From Patescibacteria group bacterium (GTDB lineage Bacteria; Patescibacteriota; Minisyncoccia; Phycocordibacterales; UBA9973), in NCBI GenBank assembly GCA_038078255.1, contig JBBUEH010000023.1, positions 1-35,955 on the forward strand: 35,955 nucleotides of DNA, written 5' to 3'. Below, piece by piece: positions 1 through 13,646 of the stretch; position 1 is the stretch's first letter; the number at the start of each line of letters is the position of its first letter. Under the pieces are notes generated by a model. The model was given only the letters and a program-made list of their open reading frames with translations. It made no database searches and was not told where the DNA came from. Both the position numbers and the translations under genes were made by a program.

Positions 1-2
1 TG

Positions 3-992
3 CCCCAGGATGGCAGATTTAAAAAAGAAGACAATGGAGAGAAAATTTCTTTTCGTGTTTCTATTTTGCCAACCTTTTTTGGAGAAAAGACTGTGATTAG
101 ACTTCTGAAAGAAAATGCCCATGGTTTTACTCTCGAGTCGCTTGGTTTTCATGGTGAAGCCCTAGAGCGGATTCATGATTCACTAAAACAAAGAATCGGC
201 ATGGTGCTGGCTACCGGGCCGACTGGGTCTGGGAAGACAACAACACTTTATACGATGCTAGAGATTCTAAATAAGCCGGAGGTAAATATTTCTACAGTTG
301 AAGATCCGATCGAATACCAAATGCCTCGAGTGAACCAGACGCAAGTTAAACCAGAAATAGGGCTGACTTTTGCCAATGGACTCCGAGCTCTCCTGCGACA
401 AGATCCAGATATTGTGATGGTGGGAGAAATTCGCGACCGAGAAACAGCGGGGTTGGCTATTAACGCATCGCTTACTGGCCACTTGGTTCTATCAACCATT
501 CATACTAATTCGGCGGCGGGCGCTATTCCTAGAATGATTGACATGGGAGTCGAGCCATTCCTTATAACTGCAACAGTAAAAACAATCATTGCCCAGAGAT
601 TAGTTCGTAAACTTGTTCCAAGTAAAAAAAAGTATTTTCTATCGGAAGCAGAGAGGAAGAATTTAGCAAAAATTATTGATCTCGACCGGATGCTGGAGTT
701 GCTCAAAGTTGAGAAAATAATTGGTCCGAAGGATACATGGGAGAAAGTTCCATTTTATAAAGCAGTTAAGACGAATGAATTTGAAGATGGGTATTCGAAT
801 CGTATAGGAATGCACGAAGTATTAAAGGTAACTCCCACTATTAGAGAAATGATAATCAAAGGAGCTTCGCAAGATGACATAGAGATACAGGCCAAGAAAG
901 AGGGAATGATGACGATGCTCGAAGATGGAGTTTTTCAAGCGGTGTTGGGTGTAACCTCGCTCGAGGAAGTGTTTAGAGTTGTTTCGGAGTGA
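3..992 (+). CDS. pilB: Type IV pilus/T2SS assembly ATPase PilB/GspE, 5'-truncated by the window edge
   Basis: Frame is open from base 3 (PQDGRF...FRVSILPT). Walker A GPTGSGKTT, Asp box TVEDPIEY, LRQDPDIVMVGEIRD, His box TGHLVLSTIH. Followed by pilC. Confidence 0.93.
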   Translation, partial: PQDGRFKKEDNGEKISFRVSILPTFFGEKTVIRLLKENAHGFTLESLGFHGEALERIHDSLKQRIGMVLATGPTGSGKTTTLYTMLEILNKPEVNISTVEDPIEYQMPRVNQTQVKPEIGLTFANGLRALLRQDPDIVMVGEIRDRETAGLAINASLTGHLVLSTIHTNSAAGAIPRMIDMGVEPFLITATVKTIIAQRLVRKLVPSKKKYFLSEAERKNLAKIIDLDRMLELLKVEKIIGPKDTWEKVPFYKAVKTNEFEDGYSNRIGMHEVLKVTPTIREMIIKGASQDDIEIQAKKEGMMTMLEDGVFQAVLGVTSLEEVFRVVSE

Positions 993-1003
993 AATGTGTT
1001 ATG

Positions 1004-1120
1004 TAACTTTTTAAAATATCAACTTTTCTTCGGTACGGATTTTTTGAAGCTTAAAAAATCCTGAAGTTCTCGGCTCGTCAGCCTCGAAACCCCTACGAAA
1101 AGTTATATTTTAAAAAGTTA
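1004..1120. repeat. Palindromic mini-element family A, copy 1: 64-bp core (1031-1094) inside ~24-bp inverted arms
   Basis: Arms taactttttaaaatat(c)aacttttc / gaaaagttatattttaaaaagtta. Core cggtacggattttttgaagcttaaaaaatcctgaagttctcggctcgtcagcctcgaaacccct matches 12064-12127 at 63/64. Confidence 0.9.
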
Positions 1121-1136
1121 TTAATTAGAATTAGCC

Positions 1137-2354
1137 ATGTTATTTTCTTACAAAGCAAAATCAAAGACAGGAGAAATCATAGAAGGTGTATTGGATGCTT
1201 CGGATCGTATTACTATGGCTCATGAACTTAGGCTCCGTGGACAGACCCCTATTTCTGTATCAGAAAAAGGAGAAAATTTGTCTGATCAAATATCCAAGAT
1301 TTTAAATATTTTCTCCGGAGTAAAAGTTGCCGAACAAATTATTTTTACTAAAAACTTAAGTGGAATGTTAAAAGCAGGGCTTTCGCTTGCTCGAGCGTTG
1401 TCGGTGCTGGAAAAACAGACTAAAAACCAAACTCTTTTAAAAATTTTACAATCTCTCTCTTCCGATATTAATTCTGGCGAGACTTTTTCTTCTGGACTAG
1501 CGAAATTTTCCGAAGTGTTTTCAAAACTTTTTGTTTCTATGACAAAGGCCGGCGAAGAGTCGGGCAATCTATCTGGCGCCCTCTCCGACATCGGAGTGAA
1601 TTTAGAAAAGTCGCACTCTTTGACAAAAAAGATACATGGAGCATTGATTTATCCTGGTGTGATACTCTCGGCAATGGTTGTCATTGGAGTTTTAATGTTT
1701 GCTTTTGTGGTGCCAACGCTGGCGAACACCTTTAAAGAATTGGGCGTTACTCTACCCCTATCGACTCGTATTATTGTTTGGTTTGGGAACTTTTTCTCAA
1801 ACAATTTAATTTTTACTTTTGTTATTTTGATAATTATCGCTTTTGGACTCTTTTCTCTTTTCCGCGCAAAATTTATGGCGAAGTATATTGATTACGCTTT
1901 AATCAAAATTCCAGTTTTAAAGAACATGACTAAAGAACTAAACACTGCTCGCACTGCTCGCACCATATCATCTCTCCTGGTTTCGGGTGTTTCCATTGTT
2001 CGAGCAATTGAGATAACCGAAGACGTTGTGCAAAATACTTTGTTTAAAAAAGTTTTGAATGAAGCTCGGGGGGCGATCGAACGGGGAAGTCCATTTTTCG
2101 AAATTTTTAGAAATCATTCCGATCTCTACCCCGTGATGATGTCTGAAATGGTTCAAGTTGGCGAAGAAACAGGAAAATTATCGGACATGTTACTGCAGGT
2201 TGCGCTTTTTTATGAAGATGAAATTGAAAATAAAACAAAAAATCTTTCCACTATCATCGAGCCCGTGCTAATGATTGTCATCGGCGCCGGGGTTGGATTT
2301 TTCGCTATTTCCATGATTTCACCTCTTTATTCGGTGTTGGATAATATTAAATAA
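1137..2354 (+). CDS. pilC: Type IV pilus inner-membrane platform protein PilC/GspF
   Basis: Two GspF-type repeats (LSGMLKAGLSL...AGEESGNL; LLVSGVSI...VGEETGKL), hydrophobic segments, downstream of pilB. Confidence 0.93.
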   Translation: MLFSYKAKSKTGEIIEGVLDASDRITMAHELRLRGQTPISVSEKGENLSDQISKILNIFSGVKVAEQIIFTKNLSGMLKAGLSLARALSVLEKQTKNQTLLKILQSLSSDINSGETFSSGLAKFSEVFSKLFVSMTKAGEESGNLSGALSDIGVNLEKSHSLTKKIHGALIYPGVILSAMVVIGVLMFAFVVPTLANTFKELGVTLPLSTRIIVWFGNFFSNNLIFTFVILIIIAFGLFSLFRAKFMAKYIDYALIKIPVLKNMTKELNTARTARTISSLLVSGVSIVRAIEITEDVVQNTLFKKVLNEARGAIERGSPFFEIFRNHSDLYPVMMSEMVQVGEETGKLSDMLLQVALFYEDEIENKTKNLSTIIEPVLMIVIGAGVGFFAISMISPLYSVLDNIK

Positions 2355-2359
2355 CCTTT

Positions 2360-3823
2360 TTAATTTTTTACTTCCTGCCATGAAAGTATTTGATACTGAC
2401 TCGAAGTAAGAGGAAAGTTTGGTGGTGGAGCATAAAGCAAATTCGCATCATAGGTTATACTGCGAGTAGCATAGCCGCTTGAGTAAACCCCCTGACTATT
2501 TGTCCACGTGAAACCATATCTTTTATAAGATGCAATCATTCCGTAAAGTGTGACAATTGAACGTTTTTTTTCAGCACAAGTTCCTCCATAAGAAAATCTT
2601 CCCACTTTCTCATTTTGAGCTATAAGTGCTCCATCTATTTTTAAATCATCTTCACTAAAGAGTCCAACCATTACTCCAGCTTGTCCGATGAGACCCAAAG
2701 AATCCGTACCATTATAAAGAGTGTATAGAAGGTCATTATTTATTATAATATTTTTATAACCAGCAGGTGCAGGTACAGGCAAATCAGCTGCTGTTATAGT
2801 CAGCCGCGCTCCATTTATTTGTCCATTGATTACCACATGGTCTTCAATGAATATTATTCCATTCCCCGGAAACGCATAGTTTCCCTGTAGGGTTTGTGCG
2901 TTGATGCTCCAGCTTGGACTTCCGGTGCAACTTCCCAAAGTTGTCCATGAATTTATTTTATATAAGTCAAAAGTATCGTCTGTTTTTAAAACTATATGAT
3001 AACCAACAAAACCAACTCCAGATACATCTCTATAAAATCCACTCGATATTGCATCCGCTTTTAGGATGGCTAAATCAGTTGTGAAGCCAGAGAAATCAAT
3101 TAACGGCTGGCTTATTAGGCGTCCAGCTTCAAAAACATCTGGACGGGCAGGGAATGCTGTGGGAGACGTCGGATCAGCAGGAGACAGACAAGTGTGCACA
3201 CCCCAAGAATTAGTGGTAGTGCAAGCATCAGAATCTGCGTCTGTATAAGTTGTTGCTCCGCTCGTAACAATATTGTGCGCTAGACCGTCAAAACGAATTC
3301 CTCCATTGACGTGTACTGGTCCGAAAATTTCTGTGCCTGCGCCAAAACGAAATGCATTATTTCCCGCTACTGAGTATTTTGCGATAGAAGGTTTGGCTAC
3401 TTGGCTTTCTATCTTTCTTATATACGATGGATCAAGTGATGAAGATCCGGTAGATTTTATTTTTACCAGAGTGGAGCCCAAGATTGGAGCTGTGATGTCA
3501 AGAGAAAATTGTCCAACAGTATTGCCGCTTCTATCTTTGACAGCGTGTACATATGGTCCCGCCACTCCTGTACCGTCTTGGTAATCACTTGGAGCATGCG
3601 CTAGATGCCAGCGATAATAATCTATCCCAGCTTCCGCTGCCTGAAAGGCTTGTTCTCGATTAAAAGCTATGCGACCTGCTTTTATACTTATTGCTGCCCA
3701 AGAGGAAAGAGCGCCAATAAGCATGATGACAATTGTGGCAAATACCATAATTTGTACTATGATCATGCCAGCTAGCTGACAATTACTAACTGATTTTTTG
3801 GATTTTATAAATTTGTAAATCAT
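2360..3823 (-). CDS. PilX-like minor pilin / pilus-associated protein
   Basis: Basic leader then G|MIIVQIMVF hydrophobic helix without Glu+5, followed by REQAFQAAEAGI (PilX N-terminal type). Last of three co-oriented pilin-like genes. Confidence 0.7.
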   Translation of the reverse strand: MIYKFIKSKKSVSNCQLAGMIIVQIMVFATIVIMLIGALSSWAAISIKAGRIAFNREQAFQAAEAGIDYYRWHLAHAPSDYQDGTGVAGPYVHAVKDRSGNTVGQFSLDITAPILGSTLVKIKSTGSSSLDPSYIRKIESQVAKPSIAKYSVAGNNAFRFGAGTEIFGPVHVNGGIRFDGLAHNIVTSGATTYTDADSDACTTTNSWGVHTCLSPADPTSPTAFPARPDVFEAGRLISQPLIDFSGFTTDLAILKADAISSGFYRDVSGVGFVGYHIVLKTDDTFDLYKINSWTTLGSCTGSPSWSINAQTLQGNYAFPGNGIIFIEDHVVINGQINGARLTITAADLPVPAPAGYKNIIINNDLLYTLYNGTDSLGLIGQAGVMVGLFSEDDLKIDGALIAQNEKVGRFSYGGTCAEKKRSIVTLYGMIASYKRYGFTWTNSQGVYSSGYATRSITYDANLLYAPPPNFPLTSSQYQILSWQEVKN

Positions 3824-4431
3824 AAATTGTCTTTTAGATTCCTTATTGATACCTGTGTAGAAAATGTAGCTGGGGCTGGAGCGCGGTTCGGATCCTTGTC
3901 CATAATTAAAGTTATTTTTACTAAACGCACAGAAGAGATATTTACCGGAGAAGAAAGTTCTGCAGTCGTTCCGTCATAATTTTTATCGTAGTAGCTGAAA
4001 ATAGAAACGTTTGTCACATTCGACATAAGAGTAGAAATTTTTTCGTTAAGAGGATTGTAAGAAAGTGGACTGCCTGTCGGCTTGATGACCCCTTTTTGTA
4101 GCTGTGATCCGTTCAGAAAATATCTTATTTTTTCTTTTTGCGCATCGTTGTCTATATTTGAGTAGAAAGTGAAGGATGATGCCGTCGCCTGGTTTATCAT
4201 GTACGCCCCGGTATCGGCGGTGGAGGCTGTGCGTATTTCCGAGACCATATTTTTTAAAACCAGTCTGCCAGCATCAGTACTGTCGAGCCCCTCCGAGATG
4301 AAAGTGTTGTAGATCCAAACATTTTTGGAAAAGAGGGTAAGGACCACGACTATTAAAATAAAAATAGCTACGCCAAAGAGTGTTTCCACCAAAGTAAATC
4401 CACTTTTATTTTTTAAAAAGTTTTTTATCAT
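3820..4431 (-). CDS. Minor pilin with class III (prepilin) signal, PilW/GspJ-like
   Basis: KNKSG|FTLVETL N-methylation motif then hydrophobic helix. Confidence 0.8.
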   Translation of the reverse strand: MIKNFLKNKSGFTLVETLFGVAIFILIVVVLTLFSKNVWIYNTFISEGLDSTDAGRLVLKNMVSEIRTASTADTGAYMINQATASSFTFYSNIDNDAQKEKIRYFLNGSQLQKGVIKPTGSPLSYNPLNEKISTLMSNVTNVSIFSYYDKNYDGTTAELSSPVNISSVRLVKITLIMDKDPNRAPAPATFSTQVSIRNLKDNL

Positions 4432-5757
4432 TTATGGGGATAGAGTTATGGTCTGGTTTTGCCAAGAAGGAGACATGTCAATAGAACTAACAGATGTTTG
4501 ATATCCAGTCTTAGAAACAGTGAGTGTGTATGCGCCAACAGGAAGTCCATTCCAGAAAACCTGACCCGGTGTCGGACAGGGGAGAGAATTCGTAGTTTTG
4601 GTTTCATCAAATCCAATTTTTTCTAAACGGACAGTAGCTCCATCGATAGCTATGTTTAAAGAATCTTTTACAGAAACCAAAATGGCTCTATTCACATGGG
4701 GGACAGCTACCATTTGCAGAGTTTTATTTTCATTTGGATTTATTACAAAAGTTGGCAGAGGAGTGGTGCCAGCTAGATCGTATAAAAGAGATGTGAGCAA
4801 AGCCCCATAAGTGTCCCATTCTAGATTTGTGAGCGCGTAAGATCCAGTTGCGTCTGTGGTGAAATTTTGCGTTCCGTATTTTGAAATCGCGGGCGCGCCA
4901 ATTAATTTTGTCCCAGTCAGGGAAAAACCAATGTTTGGAAGCGCTAGACAAGAAGAATCTACTGTGCTTACATTAAGTAAACTTATTTTGTCTATGGATA
5001 AACTAGTTTGAGTAACTTGTTGCAAGACGACAGTGCTATCCGGTTTTAATGGGTTCGCTCCAGCGCTTCCGCCTATCGGATATGTTTGGTCTTGGGAAAA
5101 TCCTGATTTTGTGGCGATAATATTGTAAGCATTTGTTCCGGGTGGCGCATCCACTATCTTTACCCATCCAATATTGTCAGTTACTTCGTCTATAATTGTA
5201 TCCGGGGTTGTTTGAGTGTTTACTATGTGAACTGAGGCATTAGGAATAAGGATGCCATCTGCGTCAAAAACTTGAACAAAAAGGGCTCCATTTGTGGATG
5301 CAGTTTCGAGCGCGCGGGGGGCTACTAAAGTGGTGAATTTAAGCGGAGAAAATACTTTGCAATTTGAACATGTTATATCTAAGTCTGCCAATTTGTAATC
5401 TGCCGGCGATGTGTCATTGGGATTTCCTCCAATTATGCCATCAAAAGGATCGTCCATACTTCTTATCGTTGTTTGCACAGTAAAAGAATAATTATCTCGC
5501 AGTATTGTTTCTGTTCTTTGAATTTTACCCACTGGAAGCCCTCCCAGGATGCCAACATCACCATAGGCGAGATTGCGCATAATCTCAAATTTTTCATTAG
5601 CTAATGCTGTGGCTGCTAATTTCGCTTGTGAAGATGCGACAGCATCCATCAACAGTCCGAAGGCTTTGTATGCGGACAACGCTACTAATAAAAAAATTGC
5701 ACTACCAACCAAGGTCTCGATCAATGTGAATCCATTTCTTTTAGTATGAGAATTCAT
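4432..5757 (-). CDS. Minor pilin with prepilin signal and C-terminal beta-sandwich (carboxypeptidase-regulatory-like) repeats
   Basis: KRNG|FTLIETL motif. Repeated V.D..G..I..A.V and Y.....K.G[FY] segments. Confidence 0.75.
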   Translation of the reverse strand: MNSHTKRNGFTLIETLVGSAIFLLVALSAYKAFGLLMDAVASSQAKLAATALANEKFEIMRNLAYGDVGILGGLPVGKIQRTETILRDNYSFTVQTTIRSMDDPFDGIIGGNPNDTSPADYKLADLDITCSNCKVFSPLKFTTLVAPRALETASTNGALFVQVFDADGILIPNASVHIVNTQTTPDTIIDEVTDNIGWVKIVDAPPGTNAYNIIATKSGFSQDQTYPIGGSAGANPLKPDSTVVLQQVTQTSLSIDKISLLNVSTVDSSCLALPNIGFSLTGTKLIGAPAISKYGTQNFTTDATGSYALTNLEWDTYGALLTSLLYDLAGTTPLPTFVINPNENKTLQMVAVPHVNRAILVSVKDSLNIAIDGATVRLEKIGFDETKTTNSLPCPTPGQVFWNGLPVGAYTLTVSKTGYQTSVSSIDMSPSWQNQTITLSP

Positions 5758-5778
5758 TATCTATATTTTAACTCATTA

Positions 5779-5787
5779 TGATATAAT
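5779..5787 (+). promoter_or_regulatory. Extended -10 promoter of tpiA, probably leaderless
   Basis: TGaTATAAT ending 7 nt before ATG 5795; no Shine-Dalgarno. Confidence 0.6.
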
Positions 5788-5794
5788 TTGCTAC

Positions 5795-6565
5795 ATGGCA
5801 AGAAAGAAAATAATAATAGGTAATTGGAAGATGAATCCGGGGACGATGAAAGATGCAGAACAATTATTTAAAAAAATAGTGAAGTCAGTAAATCGCACAA
5901 AAAAAACCGAAATAATAATTTGCGCGCCTTTTATTTACTTAGATGAATTAAATAAAATTCAAACAAGCAAGGTAAAGCTTGGTGCGCAAGATGCTTTCTG
6001 GGACGAGGCGGGACCTTATACTGGAGAGATTTCTTCTGACATGCTTTACAACCTTGGCGTCAGATATGTGATTTTGGGTCATTCAGAAAGGCGTTCTCTG
6101 GGCGAAACGAATACCTTGGTGAATAAAAAAATAAAAGGAGCCTTGGCTTCCGGACTGGTGCCGATACTTTGTGTGGGAGAGAATACCAGAGATGCCAGTC
6201 ATGCTTATTTTAATATGGTGAAAGAGCAAGTGGTGGAATGTCTCCAGGGAATTTCTAAAAATTCAATTTCCAAAGTGATCATTGCCTACGAGCCGGTGTG
6301 GGCACTTTCTAGTACTCTTCCTCGTAAAGATGCTACGGCGCTCGATGCGCAAGAGATGGCTATTTTTATTCGTAAAATACTGTCAGATAAATTTGGTTCT
6401 GAGGCAGGCAGAATTAGAATAATTTACGGTGGTTCTGCCAATGAAAAAGATGCGGGAGATTTTTTAAAAAATGGAGGGATCGATGGATTGTTGCCCGGTC
6501 GGGCCAGCCTGGACGCCTTAAAATTTGTCGAAATTATTAATATTGCAGAAAATTTTACAGAGTAA
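5795..6565 (+). CDS. tpiA: Triosephosphate isomerase
   Basis: GNWKMN, GHSERR, AYEPVWA, YGGS motifs. Confidence 0.96.
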   Translation: MARKKIIIGNWKMNPGTMKDAEQLFKKIVKSVNRTKKTEIIICAPFIYLDELNKIQTSKVKLGAQDAFWDEAGPYTGEISSDMLYNLGVRYVILGHSERRSLGETNTLVNKKIKGALASGLVPILCVGENTRDASHAYFNMVKEQVVECLQGISKNSISKVIIAYEPVWALSSTLPRKDATALDAQEMAIFIRKILSDKFGSEAGRIRIIYGGSANEKDAGDFLKNGGIDGLLPGRASLDALKFVEIINIAENFTE

Positions 6566-6631
6566 GGTTTTCTCGGGTCCTCGGAAAAAATCCCCAGACC
6601 AGCTCGAAAACCTTACTCTGTAAAATTTTCT
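6547..6631. repeat. Palindromic mini-element family A', overlapping the tpiA stop
   Basis: Perfect 26-bp inverted repeat (6547-6572 / 6606-6631) around tc-g-ggtc-ctcgg...cca-gacc-agc-tc. Same core grammar as the in-frame insert at 21226-21303. Confidence 0.9.
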
Positions 6632-6642
6632 AAAAAATATAT

Positions 6643-7875
6643 ATGAAACTTAAAACGCTCGACAGTCTAGACATAAACGGCAAAACTATTCTTTACCGCG
6701 CTCCTTATGATATTGAACTTCAAGAAGTGAATGGGATTTTTGAACTTTCAGACGATTCTCGCATTGCAGCGACTCTTCCCACTCTGCAATATCTTTTGAA
6801 ACAAAATTGTAAAATAGTTATTCTGACCTATGTTGGACGACCGGATGGGGCGGTGGTCGAAGGGCTTCGAACCACTCCTCATGCAAAAAGATTAAGCGCA
6901 CTTTTAAATCATCCAGTTTTGAAAGTAGACGACTGTATCGGCAAAGAAGTTGATTTGGAGGTGGCGCACATGAAGCCCGGAGACATTATTATGTTGGAGA
7001 ATGTTCGCTTTCATAGCGAGGAAACGATTGATGATAATGAATTTGCTAAAAAACTTTGCGTCGGGAAAGATCTGGTCGTCTTCGACGCTTTTCCTCAAGC
7101 CCATCGAATCCATGCTTCCACCACTGGGATTCAAAGAATTTTGCCTACGGTGGCTGGTCGTTATCTAGAGCATGAGGTTAAAATGTTGTCTCTTTTATTA
7201 GAAAAGCCCCAACATCCCTTCACCGTCATTGTGGGCGGGGCAAAAATTTCTGACAAAGTAGATGCCATTCGTAATCTGCTTAATGTCGCTGACACTTTTT
7301 TAGTCGGGGGCGCTGTCGCTAATATTTTCTTGAAAGCGCAGGGGAGAATTATTGGAAGTTCTTTTATTGAAGATGTTTTTGTCGATAAAATGAAGCGAGA
7401 GAAAAAAGATTGGATCCAAGACGCTGGAGAAATATTAAAACAAGCGGAGACTTTAGGTAAAAAGATCATCACTCCCGTGGATCTGGTTATTTCCGATGGG
7501 GTGACAGTGAAAACCATTGATATTACCACAGAGGAAATTCCAATGGGGTGGATGGCGTTTGATATTGGGCGAAAGACTCTGGAAGAATTTTCTTTGGTCA
7601 TCAGTCAGTCGAAGACTGTTTTCATGAATGGGCCCATGGGTAAATTTGAAAACGAAAGATTCTCTTTTGGTTCTCAAGTGATCATTAACGCAATGAAAAA
7701 TCTGAAAGCAAATTTCTTGGGTGAAACAATCGTCGCTGGAGGAGAGACTATTGATGTGGTACGCAAGTATGGAAGCCTGGATGATTATTCCCATGTCAGC
7801 CTAGCCGGTGGCGCGACTTTAGAATTCTTAGCTGGCCGTGAACTCCCAGCACTTACGCCACTTCTACTGAAATAG
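6643..7875 (+). CDS. pgk: Phosphoglycerate kinase with divergent substrate-binding motifs
   Basis: LLENVRF-like MLENVRF, AHR.HAS, GGAKISDK, NGPMGKFE, HVSLAGGATLEFL. Adjacent to tpiA. Confidence 0.92.
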   Translation: MKLKTLDSLDINGKTILYRAPYDIELQEVNGIFELSDDSRIAATLPTLQYLLKQNCKIVILTYVGRPDGAVVEGLRTTPHAKRLSALLNHPVLKVDDCIGKEVDLEVAHMKPGDIIMLENVRFHSEETIDDNEFAKKLCVGKDLVVFDAFPQAHRIHASTTGIQRILPTVAGRYLEHEVKMLSLLLEKPQHPFTVIVGGAKISDKVDAIRNLLNVADTFLVGGAVANIFLKAQGRIIGSSFIEDVFVDKMKREKKDWIQDAGEILKQAETLGKKIITPVDLVISDGVTVKTIDITTEEIPMGWMAFDIGRKTLEEFSLVISQSKTVFMNGPMGKFENERFSFGSQVIINAMKNLKANFLGETIVAGGETIDVVRKYGSLDDYSHVSLAGGATLEFLAGRELPALTPLLLK

Positions 7876-7876
7876 T

Positions 7877-8332
7877 TTATTTAGATTTTATTTTTTCGGC
7901 TGTTCTTTTAAGTTTCTCGTCGCTTTCTCTTTTGTAATCGTGAGACGAAATATAGCCCTCATATTTTTTAAAGTATTTTCTGATATTAGAATTTCTCGGC
8001 TTCCACTTTTTATCTTTAGTTCCATGCATGGGGAAAAGCTTTGCATGCACATGATCTACGCCGAAACCTTCGAAAATCATCCCCGTCCTTCCGACATCTT
8101 CGAGTTTTGCATCTAAGAGCCTTCCCACTTTTTTAGAAGCAATAATTAATTTTTTTAGAACATTATCTGGTAAATTGAAAGCATAGCTCGGATAATGTTT
8201 CTTGGTTATGACCACGCTGAATCCTTCAGTGTTTGGATAGGGTGTCAGAAAAGCTAAATGCTCTTTGTCTTCCCATGTTTTATAACATGGAGCCCCTCCT
8301 TTCACTATTTTGCAAAAAATACAATCGTCCAT
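7877..8332 (-). CDS. HIT-family nucleotide hydrolase (HxHxK variant)
   Basis: DCIFCKIV N-terminus; HIT-like motif DHVHAKLFP. Confidence 0.85.
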   Translation of the reverse strand: MDDCIFCKIVKGGAPCYKTWEDKEHLAFLTPYPNTEGFSVVITKKHYPSYAFNLPDNVLKKLIIASKKVGRLLDAKLEDVGRTGMIFEGFGVDHVHAKLFPMHGTKDKKWKPRNSNIRKYFKKYEGYISSHDYKRESDEKLKRTAEKIKSK

Positions 8333-8368
8333 AAGTATATTATAGCAAATTGTGTTAAAATTTCACTT

Positions 8369-10045
8369 ATGCAGAAATACGGCGAGTTATTGAGGGAACT
8401 TTTAGAAAAAAGAGGTATCATCGATCCAGTTCAAGCCGAGATTTTTTTAAACCCAGATTATAAACGAGATTTACACGATCCATTTTTAATGAAAGATATG
8501 GAGAAAGCCTGCGTCCGTCTTTATGAAGCAATAGATAATAATGAAAAAATAATTATTTATGCGGACTATGATTGTGATGGAATCCCGGGGGCAGTAATAT
8601 TAGTAGATTTATTAAAAGAAATAAAATACAAAAATTACGAAGTTTACATTCCACAAAGGAATTCCGAAGGGTACGGGCTAAATTTAGAAGCTATCAAGCA
8701 ATTTACCAAGTCTGAAGTGAAGTTGTTGATAACTATTGATCTCGGCATTACAGCAGTGGCTGAAGTGGCGCAAGCTGAAGTGGATGGTATTGATGTCATT
8801 ATTACGGATCACCACTTACCTCAAGATGTTTTACCTCGTGCATATGCAATTTTAAATCCTAAAGTGGATGATTATTCTGAAAAAATGCTGTGTGGATCCG
8901 GAGTGATATTTAAATTTGCGCAAGGATTTATAAAAAAGTATGGAGAATATTTTAAGACAAAAGAAGGCGCTGAAAAATGGATGCTCGACATGGCGGGATT
9001 AGCGACCCTCTCCGATATGGTTCCGCTTTTGGGCGAGAATAGAGCTCTGGCATATTTTGGTCTGAAAGTTTTAAGGAAGTCTCCTCGTCCGGGGTTGCAA
9101 AAACTTCTGGCAAAAATAAACATTGACCAAAAATATCTAACCGAAGATGATGTGGGTTTCATGATAACTCCACGGCTGAACGCTGCTTCACGGATGGATG
9201 ATCCGATGCGAGCATTTGAACTTCTGGCAACAGGGGATGAGGTGGAGGCGGGTAGGCTGGCCGACCATTTGTCAAAAATAAATGACGAAAGGAAAAGCAT
9301 TGTTGCGGGGATTATGCGTGAAATAAATAAAAAGTTTGAGAAGAGAGAAATGAGAGAAGTAATAGTTGTTGGTAGTCCAGATTGGCGGGTGGGTGTTTTG
9401 GGTCTGGTGGCCGGAAAAATTTCTGATGAATACCAAAAGCCGGTTTTTGTTTGGGGGAAAGATGAGAATGATTGTATCAAAGGTTCTTGTCGAAGTGATG
9501 GCTCAGTGTCTATCGTCGAACTCATGACGGAAACTCGAGAATCTTTTATAGATTTTGGCGGGCATGAATTGGCCGGAGGATTCACTGTCCACAGTGACAA
9601 AATTCATTTTCTAGAAGAAGTACTATCTAATAATTTTAAGAAAATTATTTCTGCTGATCTCCCCCTTACTAAGGGGGAGGTGCCAAAGGCGGAGGGGGTA
9701 TTTGATGTAAAATTGACCCTAGGAGAGGTCAATCTAAAAAACTGGAAAGAAATAGAAAAGCTGGCGCCCTTTGGTCTGGGCAATCCGAAGCCTGTTTTCT
9801 TTTTCGAGGGTGTAAAAATAGAAAAAATAAAAAAGTTTGGCAAAAATGGCTCGGGAGAACATTTGGAAATTATTTTTTCTGACGGAGGTGGCGCAAAAGC
9901 TAAGGCGATTTCCTTTTTTTCTAATCACGATTCTTTTGAAACTAAATTATCCGAAGGACTAAATGTCAATTTGCTTGCGTCGTTCGATTTATCTAGATTT
10001 CGGGGCAGAGAAGAGTTAAGATTAAGGGTGGAAGATATTATGTAA
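8369..10045 (+). CDS. recJ: Single-stranded-DNA exonuclease RecJ
   Basis: DYDCDG, ITIDLG, TDHH, PRLNAASR, GSCRS, GGHELAGG, LAPFGLGNPKP. Start moved to ATG 8369, which avoids the overlap with the HIT gene and has an extended -10 at 8353-8361. Confidence 0.95.
   Translation: MQKYGELLRELLEKRGIIDPVQAEIFLNPDYKRDLHDPFLMKDMEKACVRLYEAIDNNEKIIIYADYDCDGIPGAVILVDLLKEIKYKNYEVYIPQRNSEGYGLNLEAIKQFTKSEVKLLITIDLGITAVAEVAQAEVDGIDVIITDHHLPQDVLPRAYAILNPKVDDYSEKMLCGSGVIFKFAQGFIKKYGEYFKTKEGAEKWMLDMAGLATLSDMVPLLGENRALAYFGLKVLRKSPRPGLQKLLAKINIDQKYLTEDDVGFMITPRLNAASRMDDPMRAFELLATGDEVEAGRLADHLSKINDERKSIVAGIMREINKKFEKREMREVIVVGSPDWRVGVLGLVAGKISDEYQKPVFVWGKDENDCIKGSCRSDGSVSIVELMTETRESFIDFGGHELAGGFTVHSDKIHFLEEVLSNNFKKIISADLPLTKGEVPKAEGVFDVKLTLGEVNLKNWKEIEKLAPFGLGNPKPVFFFEGVKIEKIKKFGKNGSGEHLEIIFSDGGGAKAKAISFFSNHDSFETKLSEGLNVNLLASFDLSRFRGREELRLRVEDIM
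9659..9699. repeat. GC-rich palindromic mini-element in frame in recJ
   Basis: ctccccctt-act-aagggggag, then gcc-aaa-ggc, then ggagggggt. Read as LPLTKGEVPKAEG in an AT-rich linker. Confidence 0.7.
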
Positions 10046-10051
10046 AAAACT

Positions 10052-10537
10052 ATGATAAAACAAGATAAAGTAAAAATTTATACCGACGGAGCGGCGAAGG
10101 GCAATCCTGGGCGGGCAGGCTGGGGGGTGGTTTTTCTGGTGGGGGTGAATGATAAAGTGATTGAGATAGGTGGAAGTGTAAATCATGCGACGAATAATCA
10201 GATGGAATTGACAGCGCCGATAGAAGCGTTGAAATATATTTTGACTAGGCAAGACCTAGTCGGGTGTAATATAGAGATTATTTCTGATTCTAAATATGTA
10301 ATTTTGGGAATCACGGAGTGGATTTTCAACTGGCAGAAAAATAATTGGCGGAATGCCAACAGAAAGCCAGTCTTAAATCGGGAACTCTGGGAAGAACTTT
10401 ATGAACTTACGAATGAGTTGAAACCAAAATGGACCTATGTTAAAGGGCATAATGGGAACAAGTGGAACGATAGAACAGACCTAATTGCTACGAGCTTTGC
10501 CGAGGGTGAGCCAGTGGAACTTAAGAATAATAAGTAA
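10052..10537 (+). CDS. rnhA: Ribonuclease HI
   Basis: YTDGA.KGNPG, TNNQMEL, SDSKYV, W..NNW, VKGH.G..WND..D. Confidence 0.95.
   Translation: MIKQDKVKIYTDGAAKGNPGRAGWGVVFLVGVNDKVIEIGGSVNHATNNQMELTAPIEALKYILTRQDLVGCNIEIISDSKYVILGITEWIFNWQKNNWRNANRKPVLNRELWEELYELTNELKPKWTYVKGHNGNKWNDRTDLIATSFAEGEPVELKNNK
10243..10261. repeat. Single AGG-N5-CCT palindromic unit in frame in rnhA
   Basis: gactagg-caaga-cctagtc; the aggcaagacct core is identical to the comEC unit at 10913-10923. Confidence 0.6.
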
Positions 10538-10542
10538 GTTAA

Positions 10543-12054
10543 ATGCAAGATAGAATTTTTTATGGAGCTTGTTTTGGTTTTGTATTTGGAGTATTTTTGC
10601 GTTCCTTGGTTTTTGTAAATATTTATTGGGCGGTTTGGATTGGAGTAGTATCGTTTTTTCTAGTTTTATTTTTCAGCTTAGTTTCAAAGAATAATTGGGG
10701 AATTGTAATTTCGGTTTTCGTATTAGTATTTTCTTTGGGAATTTTAAGGTTTCATGTTGCTGATAAAATAGCACCGAGAATTTTAGAATTACAAGTGGGA
10801 CAAAAGGTAACTTTTTTCGGGAAAATTGTAGATGCGCCGGATATCAGAGAAAATAATCAAAAATTAACTGTTGAAATTTTGGCTCCTCAAGGTCTTGCCT
10901 TGGAATCTTTAAAGGCAAGACCTTTTCTCGCCAAAATTTTAGTCACGACAAATTTCGGTCAGGATTTTAAATATGGCGACCAGGTAAACTTTTCTGGCCG
11001 TTTAGAAAAACCAGAAAACTTTAGCACTGATCAGGGGAAAGAATTTGATTATATAAATTATTTACGCAAAGATGGAATATTTTTCGTCATGAATTATGGG
11101 AATGTAGAAATTATTTCGAGAGGAAACGGCAACAGAGTAAAAAGTGCGCTCTTTTTTGTTAAAGAAAAATTTCTGGAAAAAATGAATTTTGTAATATCTT
11201 CTCCTGAGAATTTACTGATGGGAGGACTTATTTTGGGTGAAAAATCTGCCTTTAATCAGGAATTAAGGACTAGTTTTGTGGATACAGGTACGATTCACAT
11301 CGTTGCCTTGTCTGGTTATAATGTGACAATAATTGCAGAATGGTTGATGAAATTATTTAAATTTTTGCCCCAAAATCTCGGTATCGGGGTGGGGATCTTT
11401 GCGATTTTACTTTTTGTTTTAATGACAGGAGGAAGTTCCACGGCGGTTCGGGCGGGAATAATGGCCACGCTAGTATTGGTGGCCCGGGCGACCGGGAGAA
11501 ACTATGATGTCGCCCGGGCGCTCTTGCTCGCTGGGGTTCTGATGATTTTTATCAACCCATTTGTGCTTGTCCATGATGTGTCTTTTCAACTTTCTTTCAT
11601 TGCTACGGTGGCGGTTATATTTTTTACTCCCAAAATTGAAAAATATTTTTTATGGGTGCCAGATTATTTCAAATTGCGGGACATAATTTCTGTCACCTGC
11701 GCCGCTTATGTCTTCGTTTTGCCTTTTATTCTTTATAAAATGGGTAATCTTTCCTTCGTTGCCTTGCCGGCGAATTTTTTAGTTTTACCTTTTATTCCAT
11801 TTACGATGATACTTGGCTTCCTCACTGGTTTTGCAGGATTTGTCTCACATACTCTGGCTGTGCCCCTGGGATTTTTATCTTATTTATTTCTGCGCTACGA
11901 ACTGGCCGTAATTAATTTTTTTGCACACATCCCCTTTGCCTCACTTTCTTTCCCTAATTTCCCACTTATCTTGACCTTTCTAATTTATGCCTATTTTATT
12001 TATATGCTTTTTGGCAGGAGTATAAAAGATTTCTTTTTAGAAAATCAAAAATAA
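10543..12054 (+). CDS. comEC: ComEC/Rec2 DNA-uptake channel (N-terminal OB/DUF4131-type + competence membrane domain, no MBL domain)
   Basis: FDYINYL, GTIHIVALSGYNV, STAVRAGIM, DVSFQLSF; many TM segments. Confidence 0.92.
   Translation: MQDRIFYGACFGFVFGVFLRSLVFVNIYWAVWIGVVSFFLVLFFSLVSKNNWGIVISVFVLVFSLGILRFHVADKIAPRILELQVGQKVTFFGKIVDAPDIRENNQKLTVEILAPQGLALESLKARPFLAKILVTTNFGQDFKYGDQVNFSGRLEKPENFSTDQGKEFDYINYLRKDGIFFVMNYGNVEIISRGNGNRVKSALFFVKEKFLEKMNFVISSPENLLMGGLILGEKSAFNQELRTSFVDTGTIHIVALSGYNVTIIAEWLMKLFKFLPQNLGIGVGIFAILLFVLMTGGSSTAVRAGIMATLVLVARATGRNYDVARALLLAGVLMIFINPFVLVHDVSFQLSFIATVAVIFFTPKIEKYFLWVPDYFKLRDIISVTCAAYVFVLPFILYKMGNLSFVALPANFLVLPFIPFTMILGFLTGFAGFVSHTLAVPLGFLSYLFLRYELAVINFFAHIPFASLSFPNFPLILTFLIYAYFIYMLFGRSIKDFFLENQK
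10889..10924. repeat. Inverted doublet of AAGG-N5-CCTT units in frame in comEC
   Basis: aaggtcttgcctt-N10-aaggcaagacctt, a perfect 13-bp inverted repeat; read as QGLALESLKARP. Confidence 0.8.
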
Positions 12055-12151
12055 GATTTTTGCCGGTACGGATTTTTTGAAGCTTAAAAAATCCTGAAAT
12101 TCTCGGCTCGTCAGCCTCGAAACCCCTTAAAAACCTTATTTTTGATTTTCT
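12039..12151. repeat. Palindromic mini-element family A, copy 2, between convergent comEC and sod
   Basis: Core 12064-12127 matches 1031-1094 at 63/64. Arms agaaaatcaaaaataagattttt / aaaaaccttatttttgattttct (22/23 complementary); the left arm contains the comEC stop. Confidence 0.9.
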
Positions 12152-12155
12152 TTTT

Positions 12156-12746
12156 TTATTGAGCCTCTGTAAAATTTTTCTCTACCACTTTCCAATTTAG
12201 ATTTTCAAAAAAATCTTCAATATATTGTTTTTTGCCACTGGGTTGGTAATCAAAAACGAAAGAATGTTCCCACATATCTAGAGCCAGAACAAGTGTGCAG
12301 TCTTGAAGTTGCCCCAGATGCTGTTCATCTACCCATGCGTTCAACAACCTTTTTTCTTTCCTATCATAGTAGAGCATTGCCCAGCCAATGCCACGGGTCA
12401 GGGCAATAGATTTGAAACGATTGAGCCATGCGTCAAAAGAGCCCCATTCTTCTGCGATGGTTTTTTTTAATTCGCTGTTTTCGTCCAGAACCTGAGGTCC
12501 ACCAGAAAGAGACTGGAAATAAACTTCATGATTTCGCATGCCATTGTATTCAAAGCCAAATCGTCTCTGGACTTCACCCAGTGCGTAGGCGTTTTTTTCC
12601 GCATCTAATGCTAATTCATTAATTTTTTCCAATATTAGGTTAGTATGTTTGACATAGCCTGCATAGAGTTTCAAATGCTCTTCAATGTTTTTAGCCGAGA
12701 GGCCCTTCAACTCCCCAATATTAAATTTCATTTCTTCAAATTTCAT
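12156..12746 (-). CDS. Fe/Mn superoxide dismutase family protein
   Basis: EHLKLYAGYV, NHEVYF, GIGWA, LDMWEHSF metal-ligand motifs. Start set at ATG 12746 (MKFEE). Confidence 0.9.
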   Translation of the reverse strand: MKFEEMKFNIGELKGLSAKNIEEHLKLYAGYVKHTNLILEKINELALDAEKNAYALGEVQRRFGFEYNGMRNHEVYFQSLSGGPQVLDENSELKKTIAEEWGSFDAWLNRFKSIALTRGIGWAMLYYDRKEKRLLNAWVDEQHLGQLQDCTLVLALDMWEHSFVFDYQPSGKKQYIEDFFENLNWKVVEKNFTEAQ

Positions 12747-12764
12747 ATATGTTAATATTGTAAC

Positions 12765-13646
12765 ATGTTTCAACAATACAAAACACCTATCCAAAAGTAT
12801 GGCTTATTTTTTCTTACCCTATTACTTTTAGTGATTACCGTTTTTCTTTTCTACCTTGATTTGAAAAGCTGGAGCAGAGGTTTTACTTTTGCTGTGTTGG
12901 ATATTGGGCAAGGCGATGCGCTTTTTATAGAATCTCCGACGGGGACGCAGATTTTGGTGGACGGCGGTCCACCCCGCAAAATATCGGGTCAGCTGGCGCA
13001 GGTCATGTCGCCTTTCGATAGACACCTAGATGCGATCATTATTACGAATCCTGATCAAGATCATATGGGCGGATTTCTAGATGTTTTGAAAGTTTATAAA
13101 GTTGATAAGGTGTTCGAATCCGGCACACGCAATGATTCTAAAATTTATCAAAATCTTAAAGAAGAAATAAAAAATAAAAATATTCAAAATATTCAAGCGG
13201 AGAAGGGAATGCGACTTCATCTAGGCGGTGGCGTAGTGCTAGATGTTTTATTTCCCGATAGAGATGTTTCTGCTTGGTCGCCAAATGATGGTTCAATAGT
13301 AATGAAGTTGAGTTACGGTAAAATATCCATCATGTTGACTGGAGATAGTACGGCAAGAACAGAGAAAATAGTGCTGGATGAATTTTCTGAAAGAGCGCTC
13401 AAAAGTACTGTTTTAAAAGTTCCTCATCATGGCTCTCGTACTTCTTCGTCTGCCCCATTTGTGCAAGCTATTTCTCCAGACTATGCCCTGATTTCAAATG
13501 GGGAAAATAATAAATATGGTCATCCACACCAAGAAACTCTGGACACTTTGACTCAATTAGGTGCCGAAATTTTCCGCACTGATTTGCTCGGCACTATTAT
13601 CCTGAAATCTGATGGCGAGAATATCGAGTTTTCATTTAAAAAGTAG
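12765..13646 (+). CDS. Stand-alone ComEC-type metallo-beta-lactamase-fold protein with N-terminal membrane anchor
   Basis: LDIGQGDA, VDGG, TNPDQDHMGG, NDGSIV, LTGD, KVPHHGS, NKYGHPH, RTDLLGTI. Confidence 0.88.
   Translation: MFQQYKTPIQKYGLFFLTLLLLVITVFLFYLDLKSWSRGFTFAVLDIGQGDALFIESPTGTQILVDGGPPRKISGQLAQVMSPFDRHLDAIIITNPDQDHMGGFLDVLKVYKVDKVFESGTRNDSKIYQNLKEEIKNKNIQNIQAEKGMRLHLGGGVVLDVLFPDRDVSAWSPNDGSIVMKLSYGKISIMLTGDSTARTEKIVLDEFSERALKSTVLKVPHHGSRTSSSAPFVQAISPDYALISNGENNKYGHPHQETLDTLTQLGAEIFRTDLLGTIILKSDGENIEFSFKK

Follow-up and report, generated by a model that had tools for sequence, protein, structure and literature searches.

Hairpin repeats with a conserved core and copy-specific arms in genomes of a Patescibacteria genus

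The three hairpins of the window, by which we mean the entire 35,955-nt stretch of Patescibacteria DNA that was analysed, are copies of two small, non-coding hairpin repeat families that are dispersed across genomes. On balance, these families appear to behave as selfish, MITE-like elements of a Patescibacteria genus. The explanation that we moderately favor is that of a small mobile core with a stem that snap-back template switching (a chemistry that we infer) lengthens and maintains in perfect pairing, together with the re-use of resident hairpins.

Two of the window hairpins belonged to family B, which has a core in the form of a three-way junction. Specifically, the copy 1 core (1031-1094, plus strand; 103.2 bits with the covariance model) comprised P1a (1032-1034 with 1089-1091), P2 (1037-1061), a joining strand (1062-1066), and P3 (1067-1088). 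Its left arm (1004-1028) paired with its right arm (1097-1120) apart from one bulge, and the inner ~9 nt of the left arm were the family inverted repeat, with a T-run at its end. The copy 2 core (12064-12127, plus strand; 100.1 bits) contained P2 at 12070-12094 and P3 at 12100-12121, and was enclosed by arms at 12039-12061 and 12129-12151, in which 22 of 23 positions were paired. The copy 2 left arm takes in the final codons of comEC (10543-12054; Pfam Competence and DUF4131) together with its stop, and has an orthologous arm in G015, while the right arm stops 5 nt short of the stop of the convergent sod (12156-12794, minus strand). The remaining hairpin, copy 3, belonged to family A′, the cores of which were compared over 20 copies. 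Its core was a bulged hairpin of 33 nt (6573-6605, plus strand) with dispersed matches of 88-98% identity in other genomes, and its left arm (6547-6572) contained the final six codons of the triosephosphate isomerase gene tpiA (5795-6565) as well as its stop. The copy 3 right arm (6606-6631) was the perfect complement of the left (26/26) and was absent from the tpiA-pgk junctions of relatives.

All three stems were near-perfect over ~23-26 bp, and the hairpins had fold z-scores of −6.9, −5.5, and −10.8, with none of 200 shuffles being equally stable. The copy 1 and copy 2 cores aligned over 64 of 64 positions with a single mismatch (G at 1066 versus A at 12099), while their arms had in common only the T-run and A-run beside the core, the stems being otherwise unrelated. 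Thus, the near-identity of the 64-bp cores, the self-complementarity of the arms, and the placement of the comEC and tpiA gene ends within left arms, all of which had been claimed in an earlier sequence-only reading, were upheld. Its claim that the arms are locus-specific needed one correction, in that the inner few bases are conserved in the family and the arms of copy 1 recur in full in another genome. That second occurrence, in G077 (contig C22), was 96% identical over 115 nt and lay at a non-orthologous locus; in that case, therefore, the arms traveled with the element.

Family B was present in 115 of the 151 genomes of the genus, with approximately 782 matches in a census with covariance model R1 in which up to 30 copies were scored per genome. 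Of a sample of 141 genomes from across the order, 25 contained it. The host genomes are only ~0.5-0.8 Mb in size. In the family B core, 11 of 21 pairs were altered on both sides and the observed score was attained in none of 500 shuffles. The arms were 8-36 nt long (mean 20.7) and Watson-Crick paired at 773 of 849 positions. When arms were compared across genomic copies, as the sequence-only reading had suggested, between-copy identity was 0.887 in the T-run and fell to 0.36-0.37 beyond it, against 0.356 expected from composition. The T-run and A-run that border the core were conserved in most copies, and a subset had a weak inner consensus extending to ~17 nt from the core. A single arm consensus, which the earlier reading had held would count against its view, exists in part, for the runs and weakly for the inner part of some copies, but not for the outer arms. 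Long arms are optional, as one copy (L136) had arms of only 6 bp.

These statistics bear on whether the repeats are simply miniature transposable elements of the usual kind, in which long terminal inverted repeats are carried by the element and the arms look unrelated because the copies come from many diverged subfamilies. The recurrence of the copy 1 arms in G077, the long conserved arms of family D elements in G013, and the weak inner consensus would all fit with such elements. However, we consider this decidedly improbable given that identity past the T-run is at the composition expectation, and that five copies in G007 share a genome-specific P3 variant and yet have unrelated arms. Moreover, the flanks of 44 copies contained no consistent repeat that would mark a direct target duplication, and at the IscS locus, considered below, the left arms are collinear host codons rather than additions.

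The comparison of filled and empty sites gave a mixed picture of how arms arise. The three window junctions were hairpin-free in most relatives: the comEC-sod junction had no hairpin at six of 11 loci, tpiA-pgk spacers measured 6-35 nt at 15 of the 16 loci for which both flanks were found, and pilB-pilC spacers measured 6-25 nt at 11 of 20 loci. For IscS, 28 of 29 orthologues had no element at the site. In the filled alleles (L142 and L137), the left arm consisted of host codons that the nearest empty alleles (L232 and L231) also possess, while the right arm was missing from those empty alleles. The IscS case belongs to family A′, not family B, and may represent one old insertion in two lineages. 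In the window, the outer 9-10 nt of the tpiA left arm matched the ancestral tpiA end; this is weak evidence because the common outer motif is itself self-complementary. For TrmD, the nearest empty allele was too distant to tell which arm derived from the host. At the L029 site, filled in G018 and empty in G013, neither arm was present in the empty allele, nor was there a clear mirror of the flank, and this one clean empty site had room for an overlap of only 2-4 nt. Contigs from four DNA runs over window positions 1-13000 were fragmented and broke at the repeats, and among the joints listed none exactly skipped an element.

Other sites pointed to the use of hairpins that were already there. 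At the L035 site, G013 has a terminator (A-tract, GC-stem, and T-tract) in the position where G018 carries the element, and the stem of this terminator resembles the outer arms of the element. G018 and G013 have orthologous outer arms at the L036 site, but these enclose cores of different family B subfamilies, and at the comEC end of G022 the arms are similar to those in G000 but the core is different. Four copies in G024 are nested within another palindromic repeat and have outer arms in common, and several arms start with an A-run and finish with a T-run. Taken to its full extent, this evidence would imply that every core entered, or took the place of, the tip of a pre-existing hairpin, be it a terminator or another palindromic repeat, so that all arms pre-date the core. 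We regard so general a rule as unlikely, since the window junctions are mostly hairpin-free in relatives, the IscS empty alleles have one arm only, the L029 empty site is armless, and most arms are AT-rich and lack the GC clamp of the plain terminators of this genome.

The sequence-only reading had proposed two mechanisms, namely an insertion that creates an inverted copy of the flanking DNA, or a core that inserts into existing hairpins, and had suggested a comparison with empty alleles. The outcome was mixed, with one arm present at IscS, neither at L029, and an ordinary terminator at L035. The inverted-copy proposal agrees with the IscS arms and with the outer bases of the tpiA arm, but not with L029, while entry into hairpins agrees with L035, L036, and the nested G024 copies, but not with most window junctions. 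Empty sites in the form of ordinary terminators, which would have spoken against the earlier reading, were encountered at L035 in G013, but not at IscS, L029, or the window junctions of most relatives. Both mechanisms are thus partly supported, and no single rule accounts for all sites.

Arms and cores also changed over time in distinct ways. Between the copy 2 orthologues of G000 and G015, three arm substitutions (read by eye) were each matched in the partner arm, and the arm differences between G018 and G013, including indels, were likewise matched. Turnover was evident at the tpiA-pgk junction, which holds a family B element in G106 and a family A′ element in G000.

Copies of both families were also found within reading frames. 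Family A′ copies were read in frame within housekeeping genes, among them the IscS, TrmD, RecJ-like, and UvrC-like genes, and family B copies within Dus. In the latter, a single loop carried in-frame hairpins in 27 orthologues, among which at least four types of core were represented; a B core was present in eight orthologues, and in two of these it was inverted. A further candidate, L179, was rejected as an in-gene B copy, there being no open frame at that position.

We considered whether the repeats are instead functional structured RNAs (a terminator, processing signal, or ribozyme) with a closing stem in which any sequence is tolerated provided that pairing is preserved. The strong covariation of P2 and P3, the conservation of unpaired junction bases, and the stronger conservation of cores than of surrounding genes are features that such an RNA would have, as is the position of many copies at gene 3′ ends, which abut the left arm in 23 of 31 copies and the right arm in 15 of 31 by a crude ORF count. 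Nevertheless, this appears very improbable, because copies lie in frame within essential genes, Dus has both core orientations at one site, and mismatches on the usually-sense strand are more often A·C than G·T, both in the arms (32 versus 12) and in the core (17 versus 6). In addition, Rfam searches of the window and 12 related loci recovered no match save one tRNA, and none on the element at either gathering or permissive thresholds (E up to 10). Among the public sequencing runs listed as containing this DNA, none was from RNA. A hammerhead ribozyme was rejected, since the would-be G8, A9, and G12 (in hammerhead numbering) vary among copies or covary as stem bases. In an intrinsic (Rho-independent) terminator, a U-run comes immediately after a GC-rich stem downstream of a gene. 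Some copies here finish in T-runs after gene ends, while the stems are rich in AT, the T-run lies ahead of the GC-rich core, and copies are also found inside reading frames. Leader-trailer pairing was not a general trait of structured genes, being found in only one of 24 tRNAs.

A transposase search, directed at the Y1_Tnp family alone, identified these genes in 110 of the 151 genus genomes, including six in G000, some of which were flanked by plain palindromes. A link to the repeats was unsupported, in that G072, G048, and G063 had 28, 18, and 17 family B copies, respectively, and no Y1 match.

Returning to the explanation by a mobile core and snap-back synthesis, the element itself would carry the conserved core, a T-run on one side, an A-run on the other, and, in many copies, a short inverted repeat that is specific to the family. 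The outer stem, which differs between copies, would be largely host DNA, formed by an existing flank and its reverse complement: the inverted ends of the element may fold back, such that the polymerase copies the opposite flank in an intra-strand template switch. The same synthesis, acting at insertion or later, could keep diverging arms complementary. Hairpin tips would also be re-used, in that one core replaces another or is inverted while the arms remain in place, and ordinary terminator hairpins would receive some of the copies. Several observations run counter to this explanation, namely the copy 1 arms that traveled with the element to or from G077, the outer arms shared by the four G024 copies, the long conserved arms of family D in G013, and the armless empty site at L029. 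We advance more tentatively, as a possibility, that the hairpin core nucleates snap-back synthesis by which the host DNA beside it, even where this encodes part of an essential protein, is rewritten as the reverse complement of the flank on the other side. Such an 'inverted target-site duplication' would define a class of bacterial repeats, the spread and persistence of which may not require a dedicated transposase.

If the arms are indeed written from host DNA, then these repeats would go beyond passive insertion, reshaping the ends of genes, the spacers between them, and the surface loops of essential proteins according to the rules of DNA hairpins. They would offer a testable natural case of template-switch mutagenesis at scale, and would account for repeats with a conserved center and variable stem that differ from textbook MITEs. 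For annotation, the repeats break assemblies and extend or replace C-termini, for example those of comEC and tpiA.

Among known systems, MITEs such as Correia and ERIC are defined by terminal inverted repeats that are conserved among copies and by direct duplication of the target (PMC10969869). The repeats here resemble them in that they are non-coding and ~85-120 bp long, form hairpins, are dispersed, frequently lie at the ends of genes, and can invert, and differ in that the conserved part is central. The claim that the pattern is the opposite of that in MITEs was borne out in part, with the center conserved, the outer arms at composition expectation, and a consistent direct duplication not seen, but with the bordering runs and a weak inner consensus conserved as well. 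REPINs have a variable spacer between conserved REP arms and work with a cognate RAYT (Y1) transposase gene that is flanked by REPs. Here too hairpin repeats lie at gene ends and Y1_Tnp is common in the genus, but the center rather than the arms is conserved, and family B copy number does not keep pace with Y1 genes. IS1397 and ISKpn1 are insertion sequences that target palindrome loops (REP) and carry a transposase. Entry into an existing hairpin tip, as at L035 and L036, is akin to this, although those are full insertion sequences, and no such gene was linked to the element here. In palindrome-associated elements of the IS200/IS605 type, a Y1 transposase acts on subterminal hairpins of one strand and insertion takes place next to a fixed short motif. 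The two hairpins and the strand-biased, wobble-type mismatches would be compatible with this type, while neither a fixed target motif nor dependence on Y1 genes was seen.

Rickettsia palindromic elements are described as small palindromic repeats of a reduced genome that are intergenic or form in-frame extra loops in housekeeping proteins (PMC10969869). Palindromic repeats read in frame within unrelated protein genes are common to both systems; in contrast, the repeats here are from another phylum and have a conserved center alone, the outer arms being copy-specific and in part host codons and their mirror image, a comparison made by description. A literature search on the arms of the Rickettsia elements returned nothing relevant, and searches for these repeats in Patescibacteria returned no description.

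Template switching at quasipalindromes has reportedly been the subject of work by Ripley and Lovett. In quasipalindrome correction, polymerase template switching is reported to perfect and lengthen imperfect inverted repeats, with one arm serving as the template for its partner (PMC13100816, PMC5941160). There, it is described as a point-like mutational mechanism, and literature searches found no description of template switching as a routine source of stems for a mobile repeat family. Such correction fits both the compensated arm changes and the new mirror arm observed here.

The sequence-only reading had described near-identical cores set in self-complementary arms, and direct reading, alignment and folding all bore this out. 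Specifically, the core of copy 1 (1031-1094; family B) lies between arms at 1004-1028 and 1097-1120 that pair with each other, and that of copy 2 (12064-12127; family B) between arms at 12039-12061 and 12129-12151 (22/23 paired); with 64/64 bases aligned, the two cores showed one mismatch. Copy 3 (6547-6631), of family A', had fully paired arms (26/26) around a different core of 33 nt. Folding energies of copies 1-3 were 5.5 to 10.8 standard deviations under those of shuffled sequences, and 0/200 shuffles equalled them. The neighboring genes were likewise as that reading had it: copy 1 lies between genes for a T2SSE ATPase and a T2SSF protein (the pilB-pilC junction), copy 3 between those for triosephosphate isomerase (tpiA) and phosphoglycerate kinase (pgk), and copy 2 between those for ComEC and a convergent superoxide dismutase (sod), with the stop codons of tpiA and comEC contained in the respective left arms. 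An inverted-repeat scan of the source genome (G000; 521 kb, 23 contigs, 38% G+C) recovered, many times over, a GC-richer structured centre inside a long AT-rich stem.

Arm statistics were gathered from 41 anchored family B copies, of 42 tried. Their arms measured 8-36 nt (mean 20.7) and were Watson-Crick paired at 773 of 849 positions. Pairwise identity among left arms was 0.887 in the T-run (positions 1-5 from the core), then 0.37 at positions 6-12, 0.363 at 13-19, and 0.374 at 20-26, the composition expectation being 0.356. Because identity beyond the T-run is about that expected from composition, family B copies agree at the centre and differ in their stems, which are self-complementary but unrelated; the locus-specific arms first noticed in the window thus proved general among the copies compared, with exceptions. 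Copy 1 in its entirety, arms included, matched a contig of another genome (G077:C22) over 115 nt with 96% identity, the locus there being one other than pilB-pilC. Four copies in G024 had outer arms in common, which belong to another palindromic repeat, and family D in G013 had long, conserved arms. At two family D loci of that genome (L131 and L159), arms of ~25 nt were roughly 80% alike around a different, GC-rich core; family D behaves as a typical MITE would and sits at positions taken by family B in G018. Family A' followed the same arm rule as family B (20 copies compared), one copy having arms of 6 bp only.

From the arms inward, the family B core begins with a short GGU/ACC helix, followed by two hairpins, P2 and P3, that are joined by the strand UGAAR; AAGCUU is usually present in the P2 loop, and P3 is tipped by CGUC and has a UC/UC internal loop. 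Family A' (copy 3) consists of one bulged hairpin, with a T-run and an A-run at its borders. Among 37 aligned family B copies, both sides changed in 11 of 21 pairs, and 88.1% of pairing cells could pair against 77.6% in shuffles, the observed score being reached by 0/500. Apart from one tRNA, Rfam gave no family match, whether at gathering score across the whole window or at E up to 10 for the elements and 12 related loci. A hammerhead reading of family B was rejected: at the positions that would be catalytic in hammerhead numbering, bases vary or covary as stem bases. Two copies in G021 (L041, L042) had a second small hairpin of ~32 nt inserted at the identical point of the P2 3' strand, and a metagenome contig aligned to the window carried the same insertion at 12093. 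Separately, a peptide deformylase gene (L004; G000 C18, about 7225-7370) had an in-frame GC-rich insert with a 17-nt exact match to P3.

A covariance model built from the 37-copy alignment placed family B in 115/151 genomes of the genus (150 matches listed and 632 further, with up to 30 scored per genome) and in 25/141 genomes of an order-wide sample, tallies that take in three unpublished genomes (G076, G139, and G147), which underlie none of the claims made at sequence level. A few further families also had near-canonical copies (17 in G281, for instance). Cores grouped by genome: five G007 copies had one P3 variant in common, and those of G015 a P2/P3 variant of their own. In four groundwater runs, summed contig depth rose 10- to 50-fold over window positions 869-1302 and 11719-12152, and contigs broke at both family B copies; the repeat, abundant in these communities, causes assemblies to fragment.

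At the three window junctions, relatives frequently had no hairpin. Comparison of 11 comEC-sod loci found the genes abutting or overlapping, without a hairpin, in six, and other short spacers in three; G015 carried a family B orthologue whose arms were similar but whose core type was its own, and G022 had similar arms around a different core. For tpiA-pgk (29 loci, both flanks located in 16), 15/16 had spacers of 6-35 nt, frequently with an ATGA stop-start overlap, and G106 carried a family B element at the position of the A' element in G000. In G000, the outermost 9-10 nt of the tpiA left arm correspond to the ancestral tpiA end, which is weak evidence since that motif is itself self-complementary. 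For pilB-pilC (23 loci, both flanks located in 20), spacers of 6-25 nt were present in 11/20, the rest having various unrelated hairpins or inserts; the junction in G068 (L239) held a 636-nt insert. Because many relatives are hairpin-free here, the three window hairpins are not ancient terminators. Different elements repeatedly strike the same gene junctions.

The closely related G018 and G013 (flanks 82-95% identical) were compared at five G018 family B sites. At one, outer arms were orthologous, substitutions and indels in one arm having counterparts in the other, around cores of different B subfamilies; at another, G013 had an ordinary terminator with a stem similar to the outer arms that the element has in G018. 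A third G013 site was empty, with neither arm present, and the remaining two held family D elements with their own arms. These comparisons support the view that some sites re-use a hairpin already resident there and show gain or loss of the whole hairpin at others. The proposal that cores enter existing hairpins finds support in the terminator site and the orthologous arms with different cores, but not in hairpin-free relatives or in the empty IscS alleles, which have one arm.

Family A' copies were read in frame within several housekeeping genes. At the IscS site (29/30 orthologues evaluated), 28 orthologues lacked the element and one had another palindrome. In G085 (L142), one of two filled alleles, codons native to the host (K-E-K) form the left arm; its nearest empty allele (G162, L232) runs straight from K-E-K into the conserved PHIVTT segment and lacks the right arm, which adds four residues. 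The other filled allele (G131, L137) has E-E-Q codons for its left arm, against E-E-R in the nearest empty allele (G073, L231), and an imperfect mirror (9/12) for its right arm. Filled and empty alleles together thus indicate that one arm is host sequence and the other new, following its own lineage's host codons. The alternative proposal, an inverted copy of target-flanking DNA, agrees with IscS, but not with the empty G013 site that has neither arm. Many IscS orthologues had split matches near residue 185 besides residue 100, suggesting that the gene has a further hot spot for insertions. In Dus (27/30 evaluated), essentially all orthologues had an in-frame hairpin at one surface loop, with B cores in eight (two inverted), A in three, D in three, and other palindromes in the rest. 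Several had a right arm ending on conserved P-S codons that the left arm complements; an old hairpin already resident at this loop would explain the site equally well. The TrmD comparison was compatible, though not decisive.

A host arm facing a new mirror copy, compensated changes in orthologous arms, and arm lengths of 6-36 nt make snap-back copying the simplest account, and we infer that it explains both the origin and the matching of the arms. Through the element's own inverted ends, a nascent strand would fold back on itself, at insertion or later, and use the opposite flank as template for a mirror arm; the same templated copying would then keep both arms matched. Template switching homogenises and expands inverted repeats, according to PMC13100816 and PMC5941160. 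Y1 transposase genes were found in 110/151 genus genomes and were absent from genomes holding 28, 18, and 17 family B copies. The six Y1_Tnp (IS200/RAYT-like) genes of G000 (L196-L201; contigs C16, C14, C2, C18, C1, and C12; about 208-275 aa) were in some cases flanked by plain palindromes; that at C18:16456-16683 had the same palindrome on both sides (C18:16215 and C18:16900). Plus-strand mismatches were A.C more often than G.T in arms (32 vs 12) and core pairs (17 vs 6), counts that are not independent since copies share ancestry; read on the opposite strand, the internal loop of P3 would become a tandem G.A. These features suggest that it is the complementary strand that pairs, perhaps in the form of single-stranded DNA. 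A crude ORF survey of element orientation yielded no strong rule. Elsewhere in G000, flank complementarity extended the acceptor stem of a tRNA-Gln gene (L012; C1:33299-33408) at 13/16 positions past the tRNA; the other 23 tRNAs had at most 5 paired flank bases.

Overall, the interpretation offered by the sequence-only reading was supported in part. Our literature search, which covered papers exclusive of their supplements, turned up no account of repeats of this kind in Patescibacteria. The closest described repeats (PMC10969869) are classical MITEs such as Correia and ERIC, REP/REPIN repeats, and Rickettsia palindromic elements, whose hosts likewise have reduced genomes and carry them in frame. 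Unlike all of these, the window elements are conserved at their centre, and their stems appear to be partly made of host DNA.
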